Assembly: GCA_003135135.1 (NCBI GenBank)
Contig: PLDK01000003.1
Span: 1,492-65,491, forward strand
Direction of reading: 5' to 3'
Length of the DNA stretch: 64,000 nt
Origin: Deltaproteobacteria bacterium
GTDB lineage: Bacteria > Desulfobacterota > Binatia > Binatales > Binataceae
This document shows positions 18,747 through 33,580 of this stretch, in pieces (within the stretch, counting starts at the first letter, position 1; each line of letters begins with the position of its first letter). The position numbers and the translations under genes were made by a program. The notes below the pieces were generated by a model. The model worked only from the letters and a program-made list of their open reading frames with translations, had not been told where the DNA came from and did no database searches.

Positions 18747-19198
18747 AGGAACGGGTGATCCTGTTAGTGGAAGATAACGCTGACGACGAAGCGCTGACGC
18801 TGCGCGCACTCAAGAAGAACAATATCACCAACACGATCGTGGTCGCGCGCAACGGGGTCGAGGCGCTTGATTACCTCTTCGGCACGGGACAGTACGCGGG
18901 GCGCGACACCAGCGTCCAGCCGGAACTGATTCTGCTGGACCTGAAGTTGCCCAAAGTGGACGGCTTCGAGGTGTTAAGGAAGCTGCGCGCGGATGAGCGG
19001 ACGAAGCTGCTCGCCGTGGTTATTCTGACCTCCTCCAATGAGCAGCAGGACATCGTCAACGGCTACGGCCTGGGCGCTAACAGTTACGTTCGCAAGCCGG
19101 TTGACTTTCAGCACTTCATGGACGCCGTCCGGCAGCTCGGCCTGTATTGGCTGGTCCTGAACGAGAGGCCGTTTGCCGGTCTCAGGAACGGCCGGTGA
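18743..19198 (+). CDS. Single-domain response regulator (CheY-like receiver)
   Basis: LLVEDNADD...D...K receiver signature. 4-nt overlap with the kinase stop. Confidence 0.85.
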   Translation: MKERVILLVEDNADDEALTLRALKKNNITNTIVVARNGVEALDYLFGTGQYAGRDTSVQPELILLDLKLPKVDGFEVLRKLRADERTKLLAVVILTSSNEQQDIVNGYGLGANSYVRKPVDFQHFMDAVRQLGLYWLVLNERPFAGLRNGR

Positions 19199-21591
19199 AG
19201 CAGCCGCTCCGCATCCTGATCGTCGAGGACTCGCCGGACGATGCCGAGCTCGAGGTGCGGGCACTCCGGCGCGATGGCTGCGAGGTGACCTACCAGCGAG
19301 TGGATACGCCGGAAGCGATGCTGGCGGCGCTTGAAGGCGGCGGCTGGGATATGGTCATCGCCGACTACTCGATGCCTCACTTCAACGGGCTCGCCGCATT
19401 GAAGATGCTGCGCGACAGGGGACTCGACCTGCCGTTTGTCCTGGTCTCGGGGACGGTGGGCGAGGAGGTGGCCGTCGAGGCCATGAAGTGCGGCGCGGAT
19501 GACTACGTTTTAAAGACCAACCTGGCGCGGCTGCCGCTCGCCGTCGAGCGCGAGCTGCGCGACTATGAAGAGCGTATCGGGCGTAAGCGTGCGGAGGTCC
19601 GCTACCGCAGTCTCGTCGATCGCGTGCCGGTCGGATTGTACAGAATTTCTACCGAAGGAAATATTCTCGAGGCCAATCCGGCGATGGTCGAGATGCTGGG
19701 ATTCAAAGACGCCGAAAGTCTCAAACGCGCCAACATCGCGCAGCTGTGGCTGGACGCGGGGGAGCGCGCCCGGCTCGAGGCTATCATCGCAAAAGAAGGA
19801 GTGGTTCAGAACTTCGAAATGGGGATACGCCGGCCCGACGGCGGCGTCATCTGGTGCGAGCAGAGTGCGCGCGCTGTTTACGACGCAGCCGGCAAGGTCG
19901 AGCACTACGAGGGGGTGATGCTGGATACCACCAGCCGCAAGCGCGCCGGGGAAGAGGCCAATCGCGCGCGCGATGGAGTGCGTGACCTTGCGCTGGAAGC
20001 GGCCCGTCTGCGCTCGGAGTTCCTGGCCAGCATGAGCCACGAGATTCGGACCCCACTAGCCGGAATCATCGGGGCCGGAGAGCTGCTGTCGCTTTCCGAT
20101 TTGACTCCCGAGCAGCGCCGCCAAACTGAAATCATTCGGTCAAGCGGCGAGCTGCTGCTGACCACCGTCAACGACATACTCGACTTCTCGAAACTCGCAG
20201 CCGGCCGGGTCGTGCTGGAGAAACTTGACTTCGACCTTGTCGAACTGACGGAAAGTCTAATCGATTCTTTTGCAGTGGCTGCTCGCGGCAAAGGGATCGA
20301 GCTTGCTCTGTATGTGGACGTAAACATGCCAAGCGGTTTGCGAGGCGATCCGAGCAGGCTGCGCCAGATTCTCAACAACCTGGTGTCGAATGCGATCAAG
20401 TTCACCCACCAGGGAGAGGTGATGGTCCGCGCCAACAGAGTGGAAGACACGGCCGACGATGTGCTGGTGCGCTTCGAGGTGGCCGACACGGGAATTGGAA
20501 TTCCATTCGAGGCGCAGGGGCGCCTGTTTCAGCCGTTTGTTCAGGGGGAAAGCTCGACGAGCCGGCGCTTCGGCGGCACCGGACTCGGCCTCGTCATCGC
20601 GGCCAGGCTGACCGATCAAATGGGCGGCAAGATAGGATTTGAAAGCGCGCCCGGAAAAGGATCTAACTTTCATTTCACCGCGCGACTCGAGAAGGGATTG
20701 GAGATTGTTCGTCCGTGGATGACTGCGACAGCCACCTCATGCTTCAACGGGATACGCGCGCTGATCGTCAACGACAGTCCATCCAGTCGTCAAATCCTTT
20801 CCGAATACCTATCGTCGTGGGGAATTGAGAACGCGGCGGTCGGCAGCGGAGCCGAGGCCCTGGATATTTTGAAGCTGGCGCGGGCCGCTGACGAGAAGCA
20901 AATCGTTGCGCTGATCGATGAACAGATATCCGGCCTGAGCGCGCTCGGCCTCGCGCGTGCAATCAAGGAGCGCGCCGATATCAAACATAGCAAGGTGATC
21001 ATGCTTAGCGCGCAACGCGCTGTGCGCAATGCGACCGAAGTGGTGGATGCATGGATTACAAAGCCGGTGCGTCCGTCGCACTTGTTCAGCTGTCTCCTCG
21101 AGTTATGCAGAAATGCCGATGGCGTCAGCACCAGGACCATCGCGGCCCCGCCGCCGAGCCCGATTGACAACGTACCGCCGCAATGGCGCAAGGCGGTACG
21201 GGTGCTGTTGGTGGACGACAATCTGGTGAATCGAACCATCGGGGCGCAGCAGCTTTCCGTCCTCGGCTACACGGCGGAAATCGTCGATGGGGCGCGGCGA
21301 GGGTTGGAGTTCGTATCGTCCCGGCGCCCCGATATTGTCTTGATGGACTGCGAGATGCCCGAGATGGACGGCTACCAGGCGGTCGCGGAGATTAGGCGAC
21401 GCGAAGGAAATACTCGGCACACCGTGGTAGTCGCTCTTACTGCTCATGCGACGGAAGGCGATCGCGCCCGATGCCTCGACGCCGGGATGGACGATTATCT
21501 GAGCAAACCCGTAAAGCTGCAGTCGCTTGCAAAAATGCTGGACATCTGGGCAAGCGGCAAGCTCGACCACATCCTCCCTTCGGAGCAGTAG
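19195..21591 (+). CDS. Hybrid sensor histidine kinase: REC-PAS-HisKA-HATPase-REC(-like)-REC
   Basis: N-terminal receiver (ILIVEDSPDD), a PAS region, the H-box SHEIRTPL, an HATPase G-box (GGTGLGL), and two C-terminal receiver domains (the last with VLLVDDNLVNR ... DCEMPEMDG). The probable GTG start overlaps the upstream stop; the ORF track start is 19147. Confidence 0.9.
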   Translation: MKQPLRILIVEDSPDDAELEVRALRRDGCEVTYQRVDTPEAMLAALEGGGWDMVIADYSMPHFNGLAALKMLRDRGLDLPFVLVSGTVGEEVAVEAMKCGADDYVLKTNLARLPLAVERELRDYEERIGRKRAEVRYRSLVDRVPVGLYRISTEGNILEANPAMVEMLGFKDAESLKRANIAQLWLDAGERARLEAIIAKEGVVQNFEMGIRRPDGGVIWCEQSARAVYDAAGKVEHYEGVMLDTTSRKRAGEEANRARDGVRDLALEAARLRSEFLASMSHEIRTPLAGIIGAGELLSLSDLTPEQRRQTEIIRSSGELLLTTVNDILDFSKLAAGRVVLEKLDFDLVELTESLIDSFAVAARGKGIELALYVDVNMPSGLRGDPSRLRQILNNLVSNAIKFTHQGEVMVRANRVEDTADDVLVRFEVADTGIGIPFEAQGRLFQPFVQGESSTSRRFGGTGLGLVIAARLTDQMGGKIGFESAPGKGSNFHFTARLEKGLEIVRPWMTATATSCFNGIRALIVNDSPSSRQILSEYLSSWGIENAAVGSGAEALDILKLARAADEKQIVALIDEQISGLSALGLARAIKERADIKHSKVIMLSAQRAVRNATEVVDAWITKPVRPSHLFSCLLELCRNADGVSTRTIAAPPPSPIDNVPPQWRKAVRVLLVDDNLVNRTIGAQQLSVLGYTAEIVDGARRGLEFVSSRRPDIVLMDCEMPEMDGYQAVAEIRRREGNTRHTVVVALTAHATEGDRARCLDAGMDDYLSKPVKLQSLAKMLDIWASGKLDHILPSEQ

Positions 21592-22547: not shown

Positions 22548-23804
22548 TCACGACGAGTCCCGCTCCTCAAACTGTTCGTCGGAGGGTTTGACGGCGCGGA
22601 ACTGAATCAGCAATGCGATGTCGTAAATTGTTTTGAGCGCGCCCGCGCAAATCAGCGGCCATCCAAACGACGAATGATTCAGCATCGCGCCCGCCGGCAA
22701 TGGCGCCAGCGCCGCCGCCAGGCTGCGCGGCACATTGGTCACTGTCGCCGCGGCCGCGCGCTCCTCGGGCGGCACCACCGCCATCACATACGACTGGCGC
22801 GCGGGAACGTCCATCTGAGAGGTCGAAAAGCGCAGCAGCAGAAATGCCATCGCCAGCCCCGGGGTCGGCATCAACGCCGCGATGATCAGCATGGCGTTCG
22901 ACGGCAGATGGCTGAACACCATCGTGTTGATTCGGCCGAACCGCGCCGCAAGCGCCGACGAAATAAACTGTGAAAACGAGCTAAGCAGTCCGGCCGCGAA
23001 AAAAAACGTGCCCGCCACTTGAACTGAGAGGTTGAAGCGGCGAAACAGCCACAGCGCCAGCAGTGACTGAATTACGAATCCGCCGCCGAGCGAGTCGAGA
23101 CTGAACAGCGCCGAAAGCCGCAGCACGATTGCCCGCGACTTCGCCAGCGGCGCGGACTTGGCGGGCTGGCGCTCGACTTCGATGGCCGGGGAGAGACGCC
23201 GATAAACCGCGAACGCAATCACCGCGATGATCGAGTATGCGACGAAGCCCGACCGCAGCGCCGGCGCGAGCGCCCATCCATGGCGCGCCGCGAGTATCGC
23301 CGGCACGCCACTGGCCAGCGCGCCAAACGCACCAGCCGTCGCGCCCGCAACGTTGTACAGCGCGAACATCGCGGTCAGATCGCCAGGCTCTGCGGCCTCG
23401 GCCAACGCCGCCTGCTCGACGGGCAGAAACAGGCTGACGTCGCCGGCCGATGGATTCAGCGTGCCGACGACCGCCACCACGAACAGCAGCCAGAAGCTCT
23501 CCGTGGTGGCGAATCCTATTCCCGTCGCCAGCATCAGCGCGCACGCCGCAAGCAGGACTCGACGCCGGCCCAGCCGATCGGTGGCCAGCCCCACCCATAG
23601 CGTTAACGCCGCCGAACCCAGCAGCGTGCCAAACACGATTGCGCCGACGCGGAGCGGATTGAAGCCGATCGCGGTCAGGTAGCTTGGCAACAATATGCTG
23701 ACTGCCCCGTCGGCAAGGCCGCGCAGCGCGCGTGTCGCCAGCAGCAGCTTGGCGTCAGTCGTAGCGCTGCGCGGGAACCATCGACTGATCGGACTCACCA
23801 TCAT
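22548..23804 (-). CDS. MFS transporter (12 TM)
   Basis: Hydrophobicity pattern and an MFS loop motif (G..DR.GRR). Confidence 0.8.
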   Translation of the reverse strand: MMVSPISRWFPRSATTDAKLLLATRALRGLADGAVSILLPSYLTAIGFNPLRVGAIVFGTLLGSAALTLWVGLATDRLGRRRVLLAACALMLATGIGFATTESFWLLFVVAVVGTLNPSAGDVSLFLPVEQAALAEAAEPGDLTAMFALYNVAGATAGAFGALASGVPAILAARHGWALAPALRSGFVAYSIIAVIAFAVYRRLSPAIEVERQPAKSAPLAKSRAIVLRLSALFSLDSLGGGFVIQSLLALWLFRRFNLSVQVAGTFFFAAGLLSSFSQFISSALAARFGRINTMVFSHLPSNAMLIIAALMPTPGLAMAFLLLRFSTSQMDVPARQSYVMAVVPPEERAAAATVTNVPRSLAAALAPLPAGAMLNHSSFGWPLICAGALKTIYDIALLIQFRAVKPSDEQFEERDSS

Positions 23805-24004
23805 CTGGCCAAAACCTAACCCCTAACCCCTTCCCAATCTGGGAAGAGGAACAGTCGCATTGAGATGGTCTATAAGGCGCGCGCCGCCGAGGGAAGCCAA
23901 TAGCATAACGCTCTGTTCGCCGATCCGCTCGTTGTGGCATACTCTTGGCCTCTGCGCGTGTTTTTGAGGAGCAATCGTCCACGGCCATTCGAAGGGAAAG
24001 CTCG

Positions 24005-24289
24005 ATGCGCGTCGAAATCAGCGATGGCGTCATATGGCGGGATCTCGGCGGCGACGTGGTCATCTTGAACGTCGAAACGGGCGTCTACTTCGGCCTCGAC
24101 GGCTCGGGTGGCCAGATATGGCGCGAACTCGTCGAACACGGTTCCATTGAGAAAACCTTCGCCTCGCTAAAGCAGCAGTTCGACGTCGAACCCGATGAGC
24201 TACGCCGCGACCTCGACGCTCTCATGAATCAACTTGTCGAAAAGAGACTCGTGCATCTGATCGCCGAACCTAAAGGTCGTTTGCGATGA
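24005..24289 (+). CDS. PqqD-family RiPP recognition element (lasso peptide B1 protein)
   Basis: About 94 aa, PqqD-like (ILNVETGVYFGLDGSGGQIWRELVE... ). It lies directly upstream of the Asn-synthetase-like cyclase. The ORF extends to 23945, but the RBS-supported start is 24005. Confidence 0.8.
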   Translation: MRVEISDGVIWRDLGGDVVILNVETGVYFGLDGSGGQIWRELVEHGSIEKTFASLKQQFDVEPDELRRDLDALMNQLVEKRLVHLIAEPKGRLR

Positions 24290-24335
24290 CGCCAAGGCTG
24301 GAGGCATCGGGCCGTCACCCCGGCGCTTCGATCTA

Positions 24336-26288
24336 ATGAGCGGCATCGCGGTCCTCTATCAATGGGACGGAGCTCCAGCGGACCGCTCGACTGTCGAGCG
24401 GATGATTGATGTCATCCCGTACCGCTCGGTTGACGGCTTCGGCGTATGGGGCAACGGCCCGGTCGCGATTGGGCATGCAAAGCTCCAGACGACGCCCGAA
24501 GCTTCGGCTGAGACCAGCCCGTTCGTGGACGAAACCAGCAGGCTCGTTCTATCGATGGACGGGCGGGTGGATAACCGCGACGAACTCACGGCGGAGTTGA
24601 ATTCGCATGGTCATCGTGTTCGCACGGGCACGGACGCCGAGATCGTGCTGCGCGCCTGGCAGTGCTGGGGTACCGAGGCGCCTGCGAGAGTCATAGGCGA
24701 TTTCGCGTTCGCCTTATGGGACCCATCGAAGCGGACGCTCTTCTGTGCCCGGGATCCTTTGGGAGTAAAAAGCTTCTACTACTTCAATGGCCCAGGATTC
24801 TTTCTGTGCGCCTCGGAGCTTCATCAACTGTTCCAGGATCCAAGGGTCGTACGAAGGCCGAACGAGCCTGCTATAGCCGAGATGCTGGTGAGGCTCCCGG
24901 TAGACCGCGAGGAGACACTCTTCGAAGGTGTCAGCCGCCTCGAGCCGGCGCATTATCTGAGCGTGAGCGCGCGTGGCGTGGAACGTCGGCGCTACTACGA
25001 TCTGGACGCCTCACGGGAGATTATCTATCGGAGCGACGACGAATACTCCGATCATTTTCTCTCGCTGTTCAAGGAGGTGATGCGATGCCACCTTCGCAGC
25101 AACAAGGGAGTCGCCTCGGACCTGAGTGGCGGGCTTGATTCATCATCGATTGTCTGTTTGACAGAACAACTACGCCACGACGGCGAAGTGCAACTTCCTA
25201 GTTTTGAAAGCTTCACGGTTCCCTTCGAGACCGGACCCGCAGCCGAGACTGAGTACGTCGAAGAGGTCTTACATAAGTATCCTCATCGCCATACCTATCT
25301 TCCTCCAGGAATGGCCCCGCTCGGCCAGCTCACTGCCCAGGTTGCGCACTATCTGGACTTTCCGGATTTTCCCAACTCTGGATGCACCGATTACACGCCG
25401 ATTCTTGGCAATCGTAACGACCTGAGAGTTCGGCTGACCGGACTGGGCGGCGACGAGTGGTTTTCCGGAACATACTTAGTATATGCAGACCTGGTCAGGC
25501 AGCTTCGCATGATGGCGCTGTTGCGCAGGCTGCGGATTGATCGAAATCCACCGGTCGGATTCGCGCCCTTTCCGGGCTATGCCAGGACCCTTTGGCGGTA
25601 TGGCGTTTTGCCCCTCGTGCCCGACGGCCTTAAGTCGGCGCTCAGGCCATGGCTGCGTCGTCCGCCTGAGCTTCACCCGCTGGTCGTGCCCGCGTTCGCG
25701 GCCAGGACGAAACTTTTGGAGCGCCTGTCCACGAGGCGGCCGTTGCCCCGGAGCCGCAGCTTCGCACAGCAGGATCTGTTCAGGTACTACTTTTCCGGAT
25801 TGCTCTCGTACTCCCTTGAGATGGATGCACGGTGGACCGCGGGCTTTCGACTGGAGGCACGGCATCCTTTCCTGGACCGCCGCATACTCGAGTTTGCCTT
25901 CGCCATACCTGATAACCAACGATTCAGGCCCGGCGTCAGCAAGTTCGTGTTGCGCAATTCGATGCGTGGAATCCTGCCGGAGCGGGTACGGCTGCGGTAT
26001 GATAAGACTCACCTGACAGAGTTATACCCAATGGCGCTAATCGCGCTCGGCGGCGAGCGGCTGTTCGATCGCCTCAACGTCGTCAAAAACGGATGGGTCG
26101 ACGGAGTCGTTGTGCGCAGGCTTTACCGCTCGATGGCTGAGGCGTTTTCTCGCCGCGATCCCTCTTACGCAGAGAATGTCTTCGAACTGTGGAACATCTT
26201 TGCGCTCGAACTCTGGCTCAACGTGGTGTTTCTCGGTATCAGTGAGCCTTTCAAGCACGTGGCCGAAACCACAGAAGCGGCTTGGTGA
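24336..26288 (+). CDS. Asparagine synthetase B homologue: lasso peptide cyclase (C protein)
   Basis: N-terminal Ntn-glutaminase-like domain in which the catalytic Cys2 is replaced by Ser (MSGIA...), as in lasso cyclases, followed by an AsnB adenylation domain (SGGLDSS PP-loop). Length is 650 aa. Confidence 0.85.
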   Translation: MSGIAVLYQWDGAPADRSTVERMIDVIPYRSVDGFGVWGNGPVAIGHAKLQTTPEASAETSPFVDETSRLVLSMDGRVDNRDELTAELNSHGHRVRTGTDAEIVLRAWQCWGTEAPARVIGDFAFALWDPSKRTLFCARDPLGVKSFYYFNGPGFFLCASELHQLFQDPRVVRRPNEPAIAEMLVRLPVDREETLFEGVSRLEPAHYLSVSARGVERRRYYDLDASREIIYRSDDEYSDHFLSLFKEVMRCHLRSNKGVASDLSGGLDSSSIVCLTEQLRHDGEVQLPSFESFTVPFETGPAAETEYVEEVLHKYPHRHTYLPPGMAPLGQLTAQVAHYLDFPDFPNSGCTDYTPILGNRNDLRVRLTGLGGDEWFSGTYLVYADLVRQLRMMALLRRLRIDRNPPVGFAPFPGYARTLWRYGVLPLVPDGLKSALRPWLRRPPELHPLVVPAFAARTKLLERLSTRRPLPRSRSFAQQDLFRYYFSGLLSYSLEMDARWTAGFRLEARHPFLDRRILEFAFAIPDNQRFRPGVSKFVLRNSMRGILPERVRLRYDKTHLTELYPMALIALGGERLFDRLNVVKNGWVDGVVVRRLYRSMAEAFSRRDPSYAENVFELWNIFALELWLNVVFLGISEPFKHVAETTEAAW

Positions 26289-26364
26289 CCCTCATCGATG
26301 CGCTCTTCAAGCTGTAAACCCTGTCGCAATGCATGGCAGAGCGAACTGAAATGGAACGAGTAAA

Positions 26365-27507
26365 ATGTCTTTGATGCTGGATGAGCATCGCCTGTATCTT
26401 TCCGACCTGAACCGAACCTCATTGTTTCGACGGGCGATCAACGCCGTGGTTAAGCCGGGCGACCTCGTGCTCGACATCGGCTGCGGGACTGGGGTGCTTG
26501 GCCTGCTCGCGATGAAGGCCGGAGCCGCAAGGGTGTACCAGATTGACCAATCGCCCATGATCCAGGTCGCCGGCGACGTGGCATCTGCCAATGGTTACGG
26601 GCAAAGCACGATCGGGATTCACGAACGCTCCGGTCGTGCCAGGCTTCCCGAAAAGGCCGACGTCGTCGTTGCCGATCAGCTGAGCCACTTCGGAATTGGC
26701 GCCGGGATGCCCGAGGTATTCAACGACGCCCGCCGGCGTCTCCTCAAGCCGGGCGCCCGCGCGATCCCTCGACGCATCGAACTCTTCCTCGTCCCGGTGA
26801 ATTTTCCCGAGATGTGGGGCATCGCCGGCTTCTGGGAGAAAAGACATGCCGGGCTGAAGATGTCGCCGGCACGCAGCATTGCATTCAATACCGTTTACCC
26901 CAGCGAGAAGAGCCCGCGTCGGAGGCTGGGCAGACCCGCGCGGATGTTCAGCTTTGACCTTACGGACCTGACGCCGGAACGCTTCTCTGCCAAGGCTGCG
27001 ATCGAGGTTTCAGCGGCCGGCGTTATGCACGGTCTCAGCGGATGGTTCGTTGCCGAACTGGCGCCGGGCGTGATCATGACCAATTCGCCTTTTCGCAAAA
27101 GCCGAATCCAACGATCTGCGGTGTTTTTTCCGGTCGAGAAGCCTTTAGCGTTGAGCAAGGGGGATCGCCTGGATATCACGATGACTGCTATTACCGCGCA
27201 GAATCTCCTTAGCTGGAAGGTGGTGGTCTTCAATACTAAAGGTAGGGAAAAGGCACGATATGTTCATTCCACGCTCAATGGGATGTCGCTCATGCCTGGC
27301 GAATTGGCTAAGACCCGTCCGGACTTTGTGCCACACCTGTCGGATTGGGGCGTGGCGCGAAGGTCAGTGGTCAATCTGGCCGATGGAACACGCACACTGG
27401 CTGAAATAGAAAGGGAATTATTCCGAATTCATTCGGCTCTCTTCCCCTCATTGGCGGATGCAGCGGAATACGTCACCAAGGTTCTCATCGCCGACGCGAA
27501 CCCCTGA
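26365..27507 (+). CDS. Class I SAM-dependent methyltransferase with PRMT-like (protein arginine N-methyltransferase-like) motifs
   Basis: Motif I VLDIGCGTGVLGLLAMKAGAARVY, post-I VVVADQLSHFG (compare PRMT IIISEWMGYxL), about 380 aa with a C-terminal beta-barrel-like region. Confidence 0.7.
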   Translation: MSLMLDEHRLYLSDLNRTSLFRRAINAVVKPGDLVLDIGCGTGVLGLLAMKAGAARVYQIDQSPMIQVAGDVASANGYGQSTIGIHERSGRARLPEKADVVVADQLSHFGIGAGMPEVFNDARRRLLKPGARAIPRRIELFLVPVNFPEMWGIAGFWEKRHAGLKMSPARSIAFNTVYPSEKSPRRRLGRPARMFSFDLTDLTPERFSAKAAIEVSAAGVMHGLSGWFVAELAPGVIMTNSPFRKSRIQRSAVFFPVEKPLALSKGDRLDITMTAITAQNLLSWKVVVFNTKGREKARYVHSTLNGMSLMPGELAKTRPDFVPHLSDWGVARRSVVNLADGTRTLAEIERELFRIHSALFPSLADAAEYVTKVLIADANP

Positions 27508-27615
27508 CCGACTTGACCTTGGTCGTCGTCTTTCATAATCTGAACCCGCGTTTTCGAACCAGGTAGCGCATCCGTATCTTGACCAGCTTCGGCGAATCAG
27601 GAAGGGTTATGCTGC

Positions 27616-27642
27616 TTGTAAGAAGCGCAAGTGTGCTATATA
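27616..27642 (+). promoter_or_regulatory. Candidate sigma-70-type promoter (TTGTAA-N15-TATATA) upstream of the lasso precursor gene
   Basis: Sequence match in the AT-rich intergenic region, about 55 nt upstream of the precursor ATG. Confidence 0.35.
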
Positions 27643-27698
27643 AAGAAACGTGACGTTTTGGTGCGAGGCGAGATGCAATTGGAGTTTGGGGATTGGAG

Positions 27699-27869
27699 AT
27701 GATTAAAAAAATTAAGACAGACGCGCAGAAGCCTCGGACGCAGAGCATCAAGAAACCTTATGTCCGTCCTCACCTCGTAGAGTACGGCAACGTGGCAAAG
27801 CTCACAGCTTCAGGCGGCACGGCTGCATCTGACGGGATATCCGGGCAACGCCAAATTATGATAGGCTAG
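27699..27869 (+). CDS. Lasso peptide precursor (56 aa): MIKKIKTDAQKPRTQSIKKPYVRPHLVEYGNVAKLTA/SGGTAASDGISGQRQIMIG
   Basis: Found by manual translation; it is missing from the ORF track. GGAG RBS at 27695. The leader carries the conserved YxxPxLxxxG-x5-T-x motif (YVRPHLVEYG NVAKL T A). The predicted 19-aa core starts at Ser1 with Asp8 as the macrolactam acceptor. Confidence 0.75.
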   Translation: MIKKIKTDAQKPRTQSIKKPYVRPHLVEYGNVAKLTASGGTAASDGISGQRQIMIG

Positions 27870-27971
27870 CAGACCATCGGACTCCCCACCGAGGTTCTTG
27901 CGAGCTGATTCGCGTGGTCAAAATTACAGCCGGCTGCTACGCTTGGGGAAGAGACCGGGTACAATCCGTCG

Positions 27972-29021
27972 GTGGGGCAAATCGAACGGTCTCAACCGGA
28001 ACTTTTCTGGGCATCGCGCTCCGTCACCGACCTGAGCAAAACGAGAATCCCAGACTTTCATCAGCAAGCCTACGGGCTGCAAATCGTTACAGACCTTCCG
28101 CTTCCGGAGCTTCCGGCACTTCGAGTGTCGTCGGTAGGGTCGGCGGTTCGCGCGACTCTAGGCGGACGCTCTCAGCGCCTCCGCCTCAATCCCCGATGGT
28201 ACCTGCGTTCGCGGCTTCCAGGCGGCAGGATTTGGCTCCGCTGCGGCAAGACTCCGGCTGGTTACGTACTTTCCTTTGCTAACATAGCCGACTTTGTCAT
28301 TGACAGCTCCGGAAGCCAGGTAGTCTGCTGCAACGCGAGCAGCGACGTTAGTCTGGAGACCATCCGTCATCTCCTTATAGACCAGGTGCTCCCGCTGGTT
28401 GTAAACCTGCGCGGCCGGGAGGCCCTGCACGCTACTGCGGTCGCGACGCACAGGGGAGTTTGTGCATTCACGGGACCTGCAGGGTCGGGTAAGTCAACGC
28501 TCGCCGCGAGCTTCGTCCTATCTGGGTATCCGCTGGTCTGCGACGATTGCCTGGCGCTTTCCGAAGGCAAAGCGTTTATGGCGCTTCCCGGTTATCCGGG
28601 TTTGCGGCTGTGGCGCGATTCGATCCGGGCGCTTGGCGCAAGTTCACGGAATCTGAAGCCGGTCGCGCACTATACGACAAAATCGCGCTTAAAAAACCAC
28701 TCCCGACGCGCCGACTTCTGCTCGACAACACGCCGGCTCGCGCGCATCTATCTGCTCGAGCGCGCGCGATCGAGCAAACACTCAGCCCGCGTCGCGATCC
28801 AGGAGCTCGCTCCCGGCGAGGCGCTGATGGGGCTGGTCAAGGCGGCCTATAGGCTCGACATCACCGACCGTGCGATGCTGACGCGTCAGTTCCAGTTCCT
28901 CTCCCGCGTTGCCGAGCGCGTTCCGGTCAAACGTCTCATCGTGCCCAATGAATTTTCCGCACTCGCCGAGGTAAGAGCGGCGGTGCTGCACGACTTGAGC
29001 CACCGTCGGCCGCCCCGTTGA
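27972..29021 (+). CDS. HPr kinase/phosphorylase-like protein: putative lasso-peptide tailoring kinase
   Basis: HprK C-terminal domain signature LHATAV...GVCAFTGPAGSGKSTLAASFVLSGYPLVCDD (compare HprK GxSGxGKSE...ADD). Confidence 0.75.
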   Translation: MGQIERSQPELFWASRSVTDLSKTRIPDFHQQAYGLQIVTDLPLPELPALRVSSVGSAVRATLGGRSQRLRLNPRWYLRSRLPGGRIWLRCGKTPAGYVLSFANIADFVIDSSGSQVVCCNASSDVSLETIRHLLIDQVLPLVVNLRGREALHATAVATHRGVCAFTGPAGSGKSTLAASFVLSGYPLVCDDCLALSEGKAFMALPGYPGLRLWRDSIRALGASSRNLKPVAHYTTKSRLKNHSRRADFCSTTRRLARIYLLERARSSKHSARVAIQELAPGEALMGLVKAAYRLDITDRAMLTRQFQFLSRVAERVPVKRLIVPNEFSALAEVRAAVLHDLSHRRPPR

Positions 29022-29133
29022 GCGCTATACCAAGGCGATAGATGTCTCAGAAACGCGAAGCTCCGCGGGTCGCAGGACCCGCGGAGCCATCGCACAAACG
29101 ATCAAGACCTAAGCCTTAAATTCTCCATCCCGA

Positions 29134-30129
29134 TCAGAACGGAGTCAGCGGAATGCAGGCGGGACTCAACACGCCGTCGGCATCGGCCGTGCCATAGTCG
29201 TTGGTGACCCAGTGGTTGCCTCCGCACGTGCTGCTCGCGTCGTGGAGATCGTGACCGCTTGTAACACCATTGCCCGATGCGCTTATGAGGTAAACCTGAT
29301 CCATGTTGGTCGATTCACTTGCGTCCAGGAAAATTCCGTCACCGTTGTTGCCAGTGACCGCAGCTGAACCAGCGGTAGCACCTTCGGGCGCATCGCCCAC
29401 CTTAACCTCGGAATTGGAGCCGCAACCCCATGTGCAGCCTACGTGCACGCCAGCGCCACCGTTACCGGTAGCGGTGAACACGCTGATCCTCGGTCCGTCC
29501 GAGCCGGTTACGAGCACTCCATCGGCGCCGTTGCCTGAAGCGCTGAAGTCTGAAATGCCGCACTCATCACCGCAGTTATATATGTAAATACCCTGCTTGC
29601 TATTCGCCGTGGAATCAACATTGGTCCATATTTCCGTCGTGCTCTCGCCAGTGCCGTTCATCTCCAGCCCGACTCCGTTGTCGGTCGTGACGATCGCATC
29701 GCCTGCAGTATTACCTCCCTTATCCAACACACCCACTGCAAACCCCGAGATTACGCTGCCACCGCCTTCGATCACGTCCTCATTGGCTGAGCTTTCGACG
29801 AAGATTCCGTCCCCTGTCGAGGTCCCCGTCCCAGTGTACGTGATGCTGTAACCCTGGAGACTAAGGGTGTTGTCGTGGCCACCGAGAGTGAGGCAGGTGT
29901 TGCCGGCGACAGTCTCGGTGAGGTTATTCTGTACCAGATAGATCGTGTTGTTAGCCGTGTACGACCCGCACGTGGTGATACCCATGGGATCTACGGCGTT
30001 CGCAGACGCATGAGCCTTCTTGGCCCAAGCGGCCTGCGGGCCAGTCAGGACAAGCGCGGCCGTCAAAGCAAGAAAAGATACGCCAGGAGCGCCTATACTT
30101 TGAAAAAACCCTCGTTTGATTGCCTTCAT
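29134..30129 (-). CDS. Secreted parallel beta-helix repeat protein (Gly/Asn/Thr-rich, GNG/GDG repeats)
   Basis: Signal peptide followed by low-complexity repeats typical of right-handed beta-helix proteins. Confidence 0.55.
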   Translation of the reverse strand: MKAIKRGFFQSIGAPGVSFLALTAALVLTGPQAAWAKKAHASANAVDPMGITTCGSYTANNTIYLVQNNLTETVAGNTCLTLGGHDNTLSLQGYSITYTGTGTSTGDGIFVESSANEDVIEGGGSVISGFAVGVLDKGGNTAGDAIVTTDNGVGLEMNGTGESTTEIWTNVDSTANSKQGIYIYNCGDECGISDFSASGNGADGVLVTGSDGPRISVFTATGNGGAGVHVGCTWGCGSNSEVKVGDAPEGATAGSAAVTGNNGDGIFLDASESTNMDQVYLISASGNGVTSGHDLHDASSTCGGNHWVTNDYGTADADGVLSPACIPLTPF

Positions 30130-30380
30130 ATCGTTTATGCTCCTTCGCCTTTCTTTCGTTTTCTGTGTGGCGACACCATTAATAAGCGGCTCTTGGCAAC
30201 TCTTGTTCTTGGACGTTTGCTCACGACGTGCCGAGGTAGATTTAGCAATGGTTTAGATCGACGGCGAATCATTTCATTTTGCCTCCCTTGAGTCAAGCGG
30301 TTCTATGACGCCCATTGACGGCTTTGCTATTCGATTTTAGTCGTTAGAAGTCGTAGATTAGGCTCAGCGACGTAAATCTC

Positions 30381-30549
30381 TACAAGTTGTTATCCTGTTG
30401 CCCACAAAACGAAAGCCGGTGTCGCCGATAGATACACTTGCAAAGCGCAGTCGCTGGCCGCTTTCAGTCTACAATTTGTCATCCGGTTGTTATGCTCTTG
30501 CGGACGAGAAGGAAACGGCTGTCACCGATCGATACACTTGCAAGGCGCA
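30381..30549 (+). repeat. Tandem direct repeat (about 69 + 80 nt copies, roughly 85% identical). It overlaps the start of the nucleotidyltransferase gene.
   Basis: Copy 1 is 30381-30449, copy 2 is 30470-30549. Both encode the peptide [KR]KR.[VL]SPIDTLA[KR]R, but in different frames. Confidence 0.7.
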
Positions 30550-31802
30550 CTTGGTCCCAGCTCGCGCCTGGGGCTATTGTTGACAACTCTGTGGAATTCG
30601 ACGCCCTCCTCGACCTTGCCGGCTTGTCCATCGAAGCGGCGCTCGTGCTGTGCTGCGCGACAACTGCGGCCACGCCCGTGCGCACGGAACTGGCGGCCGA
30701 CCTTGCGCCGCGCGTGCGCAGTTGGGACCGCGTCGTCGATATCGCCAAACGTCATGCGGTGCTCCCGTTAGTACATCGCTATCTGAAACTCGAATGTCCG
30801 ACCGCGGTTCCGGGAGAGGGGCTTGCGAAGCTGCGGACGCAGTGGCAGCTGATCATTCTCTACAACCGTCATCTGACCGCCGAACTTGTGCGCCTGATGG
30901 GCCTGCTGAAAGCGGCTGGAGTTCCGGCTGTCACCTTCAAGGGTCCGGTACTTGCCGCGATGGCATACGGATCGATCGAACTTCGCCAGTTCAGCGATCT
31001 GGATATTCTCGTGCGTCAGACTGACCTGCCCCGGGTCGCCGAAATACTCACCGCCGAACGATATTTGTCGCCACATACCAGGCGCGAAGGTCTCGCCACC
31101 GGCTACTTTCAGGAGTACGAGGACGCCTTCGTCGGACCCGACGGGCTGGGCGCCGTGGACGTTCATTGGAACCTCACGCCGCGGTCGTTCCGTTTCGCCC
31201 CCGACGAGGAAGGCCTGTGGCGGCGCGCGCACGAGGTCGATCTGGAGTTCGGCAAAGCGATGGCGATCGCGCCCGACGACCTGTTGCTGTACATCTGCGT
31301 TCACGCCACGAAGCATGGATGGGTCACGCTCGGATCGATCTGCGATGTCGCCGAGACCGTTCGCGCGCGTCCGGAAATCGATCTGATGAGGATACTCGAC
31401 GAGGCAACCTCACTCGGGAGCCGGCGGATGTTCCTGACCGGCATCTGCCTGGCGCACGAGCTGGTCGGCGCGCCGATTCCCGCCGATCTTGTCACGATAG
31501 CTCGCGACGACCGCGCCGCCCGGGCATTGGCAGGACGCGTGGCGGGGCAACTGTTCAGCGGAGCCACGCAGGGACGGGCAGACTTCGATCCGTGGGCGGT
31601 TCCGATCCGCTCGATCGAGGGCGCACGCGCGCGAATGCGCTACATCGTCCGCCGAATGCTGGCGCCGACGATGGGCGACTACGAACTCATCCCGCTGCCA
31701 GCAGCGCTCTTTCCGCTCTACTGGGTGATTCGGCCGTTTCGGATGGCAGTGCAATACGGGCCGCGGCTGGTCCGCGGCTCTTCGACCAGTTCGAACGCGT
31801 GA
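30492..31802 (+). CDS. Uncharacterised nucleotidyltransferase-family protein (PF14907-like), a type often linked to kinase-containing lasso clusters
   Basis: About 436 aa, with the architecture and motifs (GS...DLDILV) of the 'uncharacterised nucleotidyltransferase' family. The start is taken at MLLRT (30492) inside repeat copy 2; the ORF track start is 30438. Confidence 0.55.
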   Translation: MLLRTRRKRLSPIDTLARRTWSQLAPGAIVDNSVEFDALLDLAGLSIEAALVLCCATTAATPVRTELAADLAPRVRSWDRVVDIAKRHAVLPLVHRYLKLECPTAVPGEGLAKLRTQWQLIILYNRHLTAELVRLMGLLKAAGVPAVTFKGPVLAAMAYGSIELRQFSDLDILVRQTDLPRVAEILTAERYLSPHTRREGLATGYFQEYEDAFVGPDGLGAVDVHWNLTPRSFRFAPDEEGLWRRAHEVDLEFGKAMAIAPDDLLLYICVHATKHGWVTLGSICDVAETVRARPEIDLMRILDEATSLGSRRMFLTGICLAHELVGAPIPADLVTIARDDRAARALAGRVAGQLFSGATQGRADFDPWAVPIRSIEGARARMRYIVRRMLAPTMGDYELIPLPAALFPLYWVIRPFRMAVQYGPRLVRGSSTSSNA

Positions 31803-31835
31803 GCAGTCTCAATTTTTGATTTTTTAGTGGATTTT

Positions 31836-31911
31836 TGGTGAGCCGGCCGGGACTTGAACCCGGGACCCTGTGATTAAAAGTCACATGCTCTACCGCCTGA
31901 GCTACCGGCTC
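31836..31911 (-). tRNA. tRNA-Lys (anticodon UUU), 76 nt with encoded CCA
   Basis: Manual cloverleaf: acceptor GAGCCGG/CCGGCTC, D-arm GCTC..GAGC, anticodon stem TGTGA/TCACA with loop CTTTTAA, T-arm CCGGG TTCAAGT CCCGG. Confidence 0.85.
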
Positions 31912-32356
31912 GCCCGAGAGGTTTCAATGCTTACAGGTAATTCGAAGCATTGGGAATAGTCGCGACTTCCGAAGTCGGTTCCGCAACTCCGCCCCGCTCT
32001 GATTTCAACTACGCATGTGCCGCGAAAGCTCTATTATTAGATAGTTAAATTAGCTCAAAGCGCGGCGTAGCGTTACCAGAAGAGCGACCGAGATGAGGGC
32101 GGTGAAGGCGCGGGGTTATGTCATTTTCTATCAAATTTTCTAGCCAGCGCCGTCATGGTTGCACCGCGCTCATCACGGTGAAAAGCGCAATGACTAAACA
32201 CAAGTTGACTAGCTTTTGCCCAAATTCGGCAATTTCTGCGCTGACCATCTTGACAGGCTAGCCCCTACTAGAATATATCCAAACCCTACAAATTAGTAGA
32301 GCAGGTTTAGGAAATAAGCGGAAGTTAGAAGAGTCAGCGCTCGAGGGGAACTGAAG

Positions 32357-33580
32357 ATGCGCCTACATGAGTACTCGGCGAAAGGATCGCCGGTCGCGAC
32401 TGCGAGGCAGAATCTTGGCGCCCAGCCGGCGGACGCAACGTCCGAGTGGTTGAGCCTGGCGGATCTTGCGCACGGGTCGGAACGGATTGGCGGGGCGGTG
32501 GTGCGGTCGGCGCACGCGCGCAAAATACTCAAAACCATTTCACGCTTGAGTCCGTACAAGGCAACGGTCCTGATTCACGGCGAATCCGGAACCGGGAAGG
32601 AACTGGTCGCGCGCGCGCTGCATACGATGGGCTCGGCGCCAAACGGTCCGTTCGTGACCTTCAATTGCTCCAACCTGGTCGAGTCGCTGGCAGAGTCGCA
32701 GCTTTTCGGTCATGTGCGCGGCGCATTCACCGATGCCCGCGAGGATTCGCTCGGCTATTTTCGCTCCGCCAACGGCGGAACTCTATTTCTGGACGAAGTC
32801 GGCGAGCTTCCGCTGCGCCTGCAGCCCAAGCTGCTGCGCGCGCTCGATACCCACGAGATTCAGCCGGTCGGTTCTTCACGCACCTACTCGGTTGATATTC
32901 GGCTGGTCGCGGCAAGCAATCGCGACCTGCACGCGATGGTCAAGGCGGGGCAATTCCGCGACGACCTCTACTACCGCCTTAACGCGGCGGCAATCCTGGT
33001 TCCGCCGCTTCGCGAGCGGCGCGAGGCAATCCCGGCCTTCATCGCTCATTTTATCGAGCACTTCAACCGCCTGTTCGGCAAAGATATAAAGCTCGTTTCG
33101 CGGATCGCCTTGGACGCACTGTACGCCGACCCGTGGCCCGGCAACGTCCGCGAGCTCAGCCATGCAATCGAGAGCGCGGTGCTGATGACCGAAAACGATC
33201 GTATCGATCTCGACGACCTGCCTTTGCGCCACCACGATGCGAATCCGGAAGTGGTGGGCGAGTCGGTCGAGAAGGTGCTGCAAAACGGCGGGCTCAATCT
33301 CGACGGCGGGCCCAATGGCGACGGGATTGACTGCGAGAAGGCGTCGAAGCGGTGCTTCGAAATGGCGAGCTGGCCCTACTCGCTCGACGCGGTAATCCGC
33401 GAGGCCTCGAAAGTCGCGCTGGTTCGCGCGCTGGAAGCGACCGAGGGCAATTGCCATCGCGCGGCCGAGTTGCTGGGCGTATCGCGCTACACGGTTTACC
33501 GAATGCTGAACCGGTATGGCCTGGGCGAAGGCCATACCTACAGGACGCTGCGCAAGTCGACTGTACGCCGCGCGTCTTGA
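32357..33580 (+). CDS. Sigma-54-dependent transcriptional activator (AAA+ plus HTH) with no receiver domain; paralogue of 4131-5291
   Basis: GESGTGKELVARALH, GAFTDA, and a C-terminal HTH (RAAELLGVSRYTVYRML). The N-terminus is short. Confidence 0.9.
   Translation: MRLHEYSAKGSPVATARQNLGAQPADATSEWLSLADLAHGSERIGGAVVRSAHARKILKTISRLSPYKATVLIHGESGTGKELVARALHTMGSAPNGPFVTFNCSNLVESLAESQLFGHVRGAFTDAREDSLGYFRSANGGTLFLDEVGELPLRLQPKLLRALDTHEIQPVGSSRTYSVDIRLVAASNRDLHAMVKAGQFRDDLYYRLNAAAILVPPLRERREAIPAFIAHFIEHFNRLFGKDIKLVSRIALDALYADPWPGNVRELSHAIESAVLMTENDRIDLDDLPLRHHDANPEVVGESVEKVLQNGGLNLDGGPNGDGIDCEKASKRCFEMASWPYSLDAVIREASKVALVRALEATEGNCHRAAELLGVSRYTVYRMLNRYGLGEGHTYRTLRKSTVRRAS

Follow-up and report, generated by a model that had tools for sequence, protein, structure and literature searches.

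A PRMT-fold methyltransferase of kinase-type lasso peptide clusters that has most likely lost arginine recognition

A stretch of 64,000 nucleotides from a Deltaproteobacteria bacterium of the family Binataceae (assembly GCA_003135135.1, contig PLDK01000003.1, positions 1,492 to 65,491), referred to as the window, carries a lasso peptide cluster. Within it, the gene of an S-adenosylmethionine (SAM)-dependent methyltransferase (26365-27507, + strand, 380 amino acids) is placed between the lasso cyclase (24336-26288) and the precursor (27699-27869), as a preliminary description had stated. Judged by sequence and predicted structure, the enzyme is a methyltransferase of the protein arginine methyltransferase (PRMT) fold, with a resemblance far above chance. 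Its active-site loops and the peptides encoded beside its relatives suggest that it has most likely been retooled and no longer recognizes arginine. We hold with high confidence that it is a real, selected, and pathway-specific methyltransferase of peptides that are synthesized ribosomally and modified post-translationally (RiPPs), with a substrate other than arginine. The fuller explanation, a dedicated tailoring methyltransferase of a kinase-type lasso pathway on a PRMT scaffold, appears reasonably probable.

The gene begins with ATG, comprises 380 codons, and is the sole long open reading frame at its site. A longer N-terminus is ruled out because an in-frame TGA occurs at 26347-26349, five codons 5' of the ATG. 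In Pfam, the protein matched PRMT_C (PF22528) with 31.5 bits at a curated cut-off of 27, as well as generic class I methyltransferase models. All matches found by phmmer among the PDB chains were PRMTs, led by PRMT6 with an E-value of 1.4e-19 over residues 8-262. An AlphaFold2 (AF2) model built with 27 homologues as input reached a mean pLDDT of 89.2, and Foldseek against the PDB returned PRMT6, PRMT2, PRMT1, PRMT8, and CARM1 at E ~1e-26. Target TM-scores were 0.73-0.85 over ~320 columns, with a root-mean-square deviation of ~3 Å for PRMT1. The PRMT likeness proposed in the preliminary description was thus borne out by profile, sequence, and fold comparisons, and both motifs quoted there are present. 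It had also set the enzyme apart from the O-methyltransferases known from lasso clusters, and no O-methyltransferase family appeared among the Pfam and NCBIfam matches.

Three domains were distinguished. The Rossmann SAM-binding domain (residues 1-135, 26365-26769, + strand) was delimited by HMMER alignment to PRMT6 and PRMT2 and starts at the alpha-Y helix (DEHRxYLSDxxR). It includes motif I, VLDIGCGTGVLG (residues 35-46, 26467-26502), which would bind SAM. The PRMT-type beta-barrel domain (residues 136-305, 26770-27279) was assigned from PRMT_C at residues 139-274, the AF2 strands, and the Foldseek alignment. It is followed by a family-specific C-terminal domain (residues 312-380, 27298-27507), recognized by strong conservation and by AF2 of the domain alone, which gave three helices and no sheet at a pLDDT of 88. 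The eukaryotic type I PRMTs (PRMT1, PRMT2, PRMT6, and CARM1) have the Rossmann and beta-barrel core in common with the enzyme, which also shares with them the alpha-Y residues His8, Asp14, and Arg17, motif I, and the loop positions. Motif I (GxGxG) and Arg17, which contacts the SAM carboxylate, aligned with PRMT6 and PRMT2 and are invariant in the family. Throughout 27 homologues, E7, H8, R9, D14, R17, G41, and G43 did not vary.

In PRMTs, two invariant glutamates of the double-E loop hold the guanidinium, while the YFxxY motif with helix alpha-X covers SAM and closes the active site. The loop at the double-E position of the window enzyme is VVVADQLSHFGIGAG (26662-26706), the first part of which, VVVADQLSHFG (residues 100-110, 26662-26694), had been called "double-E-like". 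Its position does match; its residues do not, as the register obtained with PRMT6 and PRMT2 (SEWMGYGLLHES vs. ADQLSHFGIGAG) replaces the first Glu by Asp104, the following Trp by Gln105, and the second Glu by Ala113. At the THW position (NSPFRKSRIQR, 27082-27114), S-R-I-Q-R-S stands where PRMTs have A-T-H-W-K-Q, i.e., R-I-Q for T-H-W. The protein starts directly at the alpha-Y helix and lacks the YFxxY/alpha-X helix, and all homologues begin with MSLxLDEHR. The PRMT-specific loops whose loss the preliminary description had counted as speaking against an arginine enzyme are therefore absent.

These replacements are characteristic of the branch. Among 83 family members, Asp104 was invariant and Gln105 nearly so, T-H-W did not occur once, and position 112, one before the site of the second Glu, was occupied by Glu, Asn, Asp, or Gly with no conserved acid. 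Phe109, Gly110, Gly114, Asn240, Pro242, and Arg250 were conserved in the 27 homologues and again in the 83 members, with N240, P242, and R250 of the THW-position loop invariant.

The peptides point in the same direction. A scan for relatives with one genome per species found 275, of which the best 80 loci were examined; precursors homologous to that of the window occurred in 78 of these 80. The 80 loci and the window yielded 79 distinct cores, and three cores of a second clade (clade 2) brought the set to 82. Arg was missing from 52 of the 79 cores, and Arg and Lys were both missing from 36. No side-chain nitrogen at all was present in 14 of the 82, among them the core of locus L001 (SGGTATPVDSMSGMTGPPM), the methyltransferase of which is 92% identical to that of the window with identical active-site loops. 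The methyltransferase gene is under purifying selection, with a dN/dS of 0.18-0.26 against six orthologues and similar values across the three domains.

The preliminary description had raised N-methylarginine as a possibility, based on the single Arg of the predicted core, which is indeed present (SGGTAASDGISGQRQIMIG). A genuine protein arginine N-methyltransferase acting on this residue (R14, GQRQ) would agree with the PRMT fold and the top matches, and Asp104 could still contact a guanidinium. Arg is also found in 7 of the 10 cores of the close sub-clade (window, L001-L008, and the second L045 cluster), often as x-R-M. Nevertheless, the enzyme has lost its THW loop, YFxxY helix, and second Glu, the L001 orthologue with the same loops is paired with a core that offers neither Arg nor any other side-chain nitrogen, and the gene remains under purifying selection although 52 of the 79 cores are free of Arg, which makes this explanation very unlikely for the window. 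The accompanying caveat that another nucleophile could equally be methylated proved apt. Compared with the type I PRMTs, the enzyme differs in its missing helix and its three loop replacements, in the additional C-terminal domain, in its bacterial RiPP operon, and in cognate peptides that are mostly free of Arg.

A sister branch retains both Glu and a T-x-W motif, which the window enzyme lacks. P0224, P0240, P0243, P0252, P0266, and P0267 carry SETIGNFG[VLF][DE]EG with both Glu in exact PRMT register and T/K-S-W at the THW position, and P0224 matched PRMT6 at 3e-30, compared with 1e-19 for the window enzyme. Both branches have the three-domain architecture and lasso clusters in common, usually with an adjoining HprK-like kinase. 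All three cores recovered from the sister branch contain Arg (SGTGVLPETRRNPGEDRLQRL, AKMIFSRNPLDGKTKMFGMFTLQWRS, and NISGSVTDGARDGLQSN), compared with 27 of 79 in the D-Q branch (hypergeometric p ~0.046, calculated by hand with n=3 and no phylogenetic correction). It is plausible from these sequences that the sister branch comprises true arginine methyltransferases. The N-methylarginine idea may fit these relatives and not the window enzyme, which looks like a derivative with a changed acceptor. P0241 (L115, 211-1428), encoded between a STAS protein and a SulP transporter, likewise shows a double-E loop of canonical spacing and shares the helical domain at the C-terminus; as it lies outside any RiPP cluster, the PRMT-like family is not solely linked to RiPPs.

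The surroundings of the gene were compared by tblastn with the window proteins. In the best 80 loci, the gene set was nearly constant and usually ordered B1 (PqqD-type recognition protein), B2 (leader peptidase), C (cyclase), A (precursor), methyltransferase, kinase, and NTP_transf_5 protein. Components were counted in the 56 loci whose flanks reached at least 4 kb upstream and no less than 3 kb downstream. The HprK-like kinase occurred in 56 of 56 and directly downstream of the methyltransferase in 48, followed by the cyclase and B1 with 54 each, NTP_transf_5 with 41, and B2 with 39. Four divergent methyltransferase branches from a profile search (L117, L118, L119, and L121) were likewise all located in lasso clusters with an adjoining HprK/ScmC-like gene. 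In clade 2, with methyltransferases 40% identical to that of the window, the order was B1, methyltransferase, a ~588-amino-acid protein, B2, C, A, kinase, and NTP_transf_5, so that the methyltransferase lies next to B1 and 6-8 kb upstream of the kinase. Clade 2 was rejected as a control clade lacking the methyltransferase, as the gene is present beside B1 in some of its members and absent in others.

The paeninodin (PadeK), pseudomycoidin (PsmK/PsmN), and Bradymonas (BsfK/BsfN) clusters resemble the one in the window in their split B1/B2, HprK-like kinase, and NTP_transf_5-type protein. None of their descriptions includes a methyltransferase; in the present clusters, this gene is an additional module, usually located between A and the kinase. 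In a lasso precursor, BsfK phosphorylates core Ser3, and B1 stimulates this kinase (PMC10368454). Kinase clusters without a methyltransferase are well known, a single methyltransferase locus without a kinase was found, and methylated phospho-Ser/Thr was ranked first for this reason. The asymmetry would be the pattern expected of sequential chemistry in which the methyltransferase uses the product of the kinase.

Sulfur was the acceptor favoured at first. Met occurred in 94% of clade-1 cores, with 2.6 per core, and Met or Cys in 79 of 79, so that S-methylation of the Met/Cys-rich tail to S-methyl-Cys or a Met sulfonium had an acceptor in every clade-1 core. A side chain that is long and unbranched also fits a channel of the PRMT type. 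The count of 79 proved uninformative, since only ~0.7 cores lacking both residues are expected from their single frequencies. Five clade-1 cores have no Met and 12 no Cys, all with intact methyltransferases. In the full set of 82, the clade-2 cores of L096 (GTTGTHSDKGHLGGAHGSG) and L112 (GTTGSATDKGTLANVHGSG) contain neither residue, again in clusters with an intact methyltransferase, and S-methylation was dropped on these sulfur-free cores as highly improbable. Spare acidic side chains are similarly scarce, with no Asp or Glu besides the ring acceptor in 74 of 82 cores. If one acceptor type is conserved, the exclusion of side-chain nitrogen, sulfur, and spare Asp/Glu leaves oxygen or backbone nitrogen. 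Hydroxyl groups are available throughout; Ser or Thr occurs in every core, with exactly one hydroxyl residue in that of L015 (NGQGSGNDGGPNAGMMMVCL), and a ring Ser/Thr after position 1 is found in 78 of 79.

The tails themselves were conspicuous. The precursors of L004-L080 encode Met-rich core tails such as GMFMTTACL, MMMMCL, and GMGMGMCL, with no Trp and almost no Tyr. They recall Cu(I)-binding "Mets" motifs, and the hosts include Nitrospira and Methylomirabilota. Most cores (67 of 79) end with Cys-Leu/Ile, an end that the window core (27810-27866) has lost. A tail-to-ring thioether after phosphate elimination may be conceivable.

Among the remaining oxygen and nitrogen acceptors, our single pick, made tentatively from the gene and core comparisons, is a ring phospho-Ser/Thr made by the kinase or a group added by the NTP_transf_5 protein. 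A free ring Ser/Thr hydroxyl is unlikely to be the target, and a backbone amide even less so. An O-methyltransferase of the C-terminal carboxyl, producing a methyl ester like that of lassomycin by convergence on a different fold, is possible but doubtful. A C-terminal carboxylate is present in every core, and StspM/LasF provide a lasso precedent in methylating the C-terminus of the linear precursor (PMC9266682). Such an ester would leave many products uncharged, considering the cores without other free carboxylates and those without Arg and Lys, and the frequent Cys-Leu end could serve as a recognition motif. The enzyme has, however, no homology to StspM-type O-methyltransferases, an anionic substrate would not lead one to expect an invariant Asp at the nucleophile site, and the near-obligate linkage to the kinase would be left unexplained. 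Furthermore, where Cys-Leu has been lost, the last residue varies (G, M, F, V, K, D, S, R, and A).

The preferred reading of a kinase-linked tailoring enzyme faces objections of its own. The acceptor was reached by elimination, on comparative and not chemical grounds and assuming one acceptor type across the branch. The invariant acid D104 suits a hydrogen-bond-donating nucleophile (OH or NH) better than an anionic phosphate or carboxylate. The linkage of methyltransferase and kinase could reflect a shared dependence on B1 or co-inheritance, and the canonical double-E branch is also kinase-adjacent, yet Arg is probably its target. No kinase was found at L123 within its 6.8-kb contig, the sole methyltransferase locus found without one. 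In clade 2, clusters of one and the same core type may have or lack the methyltransferase (L088 and L083); its modification is consequently dispensable there, leaves no sequence signature, and gives no signal of the acceptor. Finally, production of a mature lasso from this locus by itself would be an assumption, as B2 is missing from the window and may be located elsewhere in the genome, and peptide binding by the C-terminal domain is a conjecture after the profile and Foldseek comparisons described below.

The mechanism that we propose would begin with B1, which would bind the conserved leader (YxxPxLxEYGxxAKLT) of the linear precursor, as known lasso biology and a natural methyltransferase-PqqD fusion suggest. 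The leader-bound peptide would then be the substrate of a two-gene module, the HprK-like kinase and the methyltransferase; their genes are linked, and their order of action is presumed. SAM would be bound as in PRMTs, with motif I and Arg17 kept, and its methyl group transferred to an acceptor present in every cognate core. A bolder version, in which a PRMT scaffold became an O-methyltransferase that caps phospho-Ser/Thr or the NTP_transf_5-added group, yielding a lasso with a methyl phosphodiester from a module that also serves other RiPP classes, is speculative and held with low confidence. To our knowledge, a methyl phosphodiester modification is unreported in RiPPs, a point at which the literature search was not aimed.

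The loss of the catalytic Glu also admits a dead or scaffolding PRMT-like "prozyme", for which the PRMT1 prozyme of T. brucei (6dnz), one of the Foldseek matches, sets a precedent, or a housekeeping L11 methyltransferase (PrmA) merely located in the cluster, since relatives appear in public records as "50S ribosomal protein L11 methyltransferase" or under the name "PRMT1". Both are most improbable. Motif I, Arg17, Asp104, Asn240, and Arg250 are invariant down to ~44% identity, and linkage to lasso genes in at least seven phyla is incompatible with a housekeeping role. PrmA has a similar Rossmann core, to which its match was confined (PF06325, 2.6e-11, residues 19-107), while the window enzyme lacks the L11-binding N-terminal domain and has the PRMT beta-barrel instead. 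The public name PrmA is wrong because TIGR00406 scored 33.8 bits, far below its cut-off of 183.

The best 80 of the 275 relatives belonged to Binatota, Acidobacteriota, Nitrospirota, Methylomirabilota/Rokubacteria, Actinomycetota, Burkholderiales, and Myxococcota, the nearest being a Candidatus Binatus metagenome-assembled genome with 92% identity. A profile search of 1.84 billion representatives returned 3,296 cluster representatives at E <= 1e-30, a total that takes in non-RiPP members such as P0241. The best 150 of the 3,296 were all full length including the C-terminal domain.

The C-terminal domain resembled PqqD by eye, which had made it a candidate RiPP recognition element (RRE). Pfam matches were weak; of 22 members, three matched PKMT_2nd and two matched PqqD (0.059), and neither hhalign against the B1 alignment of the cluster nor a PDB profile search found anything. 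Foldseek listed the C-terminal domain of Rv2067c, the PqqD structure 3g2b (probability 0.90, E 0.5), and the B1 structure 6jx3 (rank 11), none at E < 0.001. The RRE assignment was dropped, as there was no profile match, P0248 has this domain in addition to a true PqqD domain, and it also occurs in a non-RiPP relative. Rv2067c was likewise rejected as the nearest relative of the whole protein; only the C-terminal domains are alike, and its dimerization domain is helical without a PRMT barrel.

Over 366 residues, P0248 shares 34% identity with the window enzyme (E 7e-63), and it keeps the three-helix domain in front of its terminal PqqD domain. Two fusions of this type occur in tandem in a non-lasso NHLP/radical-SAM RiPP cluster (L113, 185-11542; also L114). 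The L113 cluster further encodes a ScmD-like PqqD protein, two radical-SAM enzymes, a Cys-rich peptide of 82 amino acids, a ScmC-like P-loop protein, an S24-like peptidase, a GT2 glycosyltransferase, and an NHLP-leader precursor. Through this fusion, the methyltransferase family is connected with RRE-mediated recognition of the leader; for the window, by analogy, we infer that this role would fall to B1 in trans. The linear precursor is the substrate of lasso kinases, StspM, the CanE hydroxylase, and the MslH epimerase, and B1 was reported to promote the hydroxylation and epimerization steps (PMC9266682, PMC8498205, PMC10368454).

The remaining genes identify the locus as a lasso cluster, with a cyclase, a PqqD-type B1, and a precursor with a YxxPxL...T(-2) leader and a core Asp8. 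B1, the PqqD-type RRE (24005-24289, + strand, 94 amino acids), matched PqqD of Pfam at 9e-17 and lasso_PqqD_Bac of NCBIfam at 1.3e-14. The macrolactam cyclase C (+ strand, 650 amino acids), with Asn_synthase and GATase domains, matched NF033535 at E 3.5e-130 with 435.6 bits, under the 525-bit cut-off of that model. Precursor A (+ strand, 56 amino acids) consists of the leader MIKKIKTDAQKPRTQSIKKPYVRPHLVEYGNVAKLTA (27699-27809) and the predicted core SGGTAASDGISGQRQIMIG (27810-27866), with a putative ring from Ser1 to Asp8; the cleavage site, the leader/core boundary, and the ring size follow from the Thr(-2) rule. The lasso leader motif YxxPxLxxxGxxxxxT reads YVRPHLVEYGNVAKLTA, Thr is at -2, and the match to the lasso_leader_L3 model was weak. 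The HprK-like peptide kinase (27972-29021, + strand, 349 amino acids), the conserved partner of the methyltransferase, matched HprK_rel_A (TIGR04352) at 1.8e-9, and the NTP_transf_5 nucleotidyltransferase-like protein (30438-31802, + strand, start codon uncertain) matched PF14907 at 2.2e-56. An MFS transporter divergent from B1 (22548-23804, - strand, PF07690 at 1.3e-34) is a possible exporter and, by adjacency only, a candidate member of the cluster.

The transglutaminase-like leader peptidase B2 was not detected in the 64-kb window by tblastn with four B2 queries, and a profile hidden Markov model of 43 B2 sequences gave a best E of 0.094 across the 64 kb, compared with 3.6e-50 for the positive control. 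The closest related loci (L001-L004, L006-L008, and L045) also have no B2 within 8 kb, while L005 retains one, divergent from NTP_transf_5. A promoter and terminator scan of 23700-32000 gave counts at or below the shuffle expectation.

Several further features were observed in and around these clusters. In the Binataceae clade (L001-L009 and L045), the cluster has a conserved neighbour, a secreted protein of 331 amino acids (29134-30129, - strand) that is rich in Gly, Thr, and Asn, gave a weak parallel beta-helix repeat match, and occurs in three tandem copies in L005. The flanks of the window cluster (19147-21591 and 32357-33580) encode two possible regulators, namely a hybrid histidine kinase with PAS and several receiver domains, and a sigma-54 enhancer-binding protein. 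The ~588-amino-acid protein of clade 2, apparently a polytopic membrane protein without family assignment, sits between the methyltransferase (or B1) and B2 (L096, 3081-4808; L108, 9271-11037; L112, 9529-11298; L088, 1578-3341). At L045 (1-9400), two lasso clusters with unrelated core tails are ~2 kb apart with an ABC transporter between them; the first alone has a kinase and NTP_transf_5 of its own, and the methyltransferase occurs only in the second. The open reading frame of P0181 (417 amino acids) runs from the methyltransferase into a lasso-leader-like stretch (RRPYQPPVLFRFDG), which is either an enzyme-precursor fusion or an assembly frameshift.

The lasso methyltransferases known so far differ from the window enzyme. 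LasF and StspM, of the lassomycin type, are SAM-dependent and tailor the linear precursor, as is proposed here (PMC9266682, PMC8498205), while StspM was modelled on mitomycin-7-O-methyltransferase with a His/Glu catalytic pair (PMC9266682), from a kind of family that the window enzyme did not match. TceM and LihM, PIMT-like enzymes of the PCMT family, act on a ring Asp of the threaded lasso and lead to the aspartimide in cellulonodin-2 and lihuanodin (PMC9266682, PMC13352647); the window enzyme gave no PCMT match, and its branch mostly lacks the spare acidic residue. Lasso modifications covered by reviews up to 2026 are C-terminal methyl ester, phosphorylation, phosphoglycosylation, acetylation, citrullination, epimerization, hydroxylation, aspartimide, biaryl links, prenylation, and a second isopeptide bond, and neither a PRMT-like enzyme nor methyl-arginine in lassos appears in those reviews. 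A full-text literature search combining lasso or RiPP with arginine methyltransferase, PRMT, and related themes did not find this enzyme type described. In a 2025 study, lasso clusters with "phospho- or methyltransferases" were cloned from soil metagenomes, and a product is reported there for a different cluster, BGC 89. The enzyme is therefore a lasso/RiPP tailoring methyltransferase from a fold family not previously tied to RiPPs.

Lasso tailoring methyltransferases have so far come from two unrelated families, to which this one adds a third and much larger family, with a fold typical of eukaryotic PRMTs. It derives almost wholly from uncultured soil and freshwater phyla, i.e., Binatota, Acidobacteriota, Nitrospirota, and Methylomirabilota. 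The pairing with the kinase, together with the PqqD fusion in a cluster of non-lasso type, marks it as a RiPP tailoring module that is portable. With double-E and D-Q members in one pathway type, the family presents a natural experiment on the change of PRMT specificity, and its double-E sister branch would, if true, be the first RiPP arginine methyltransferase.

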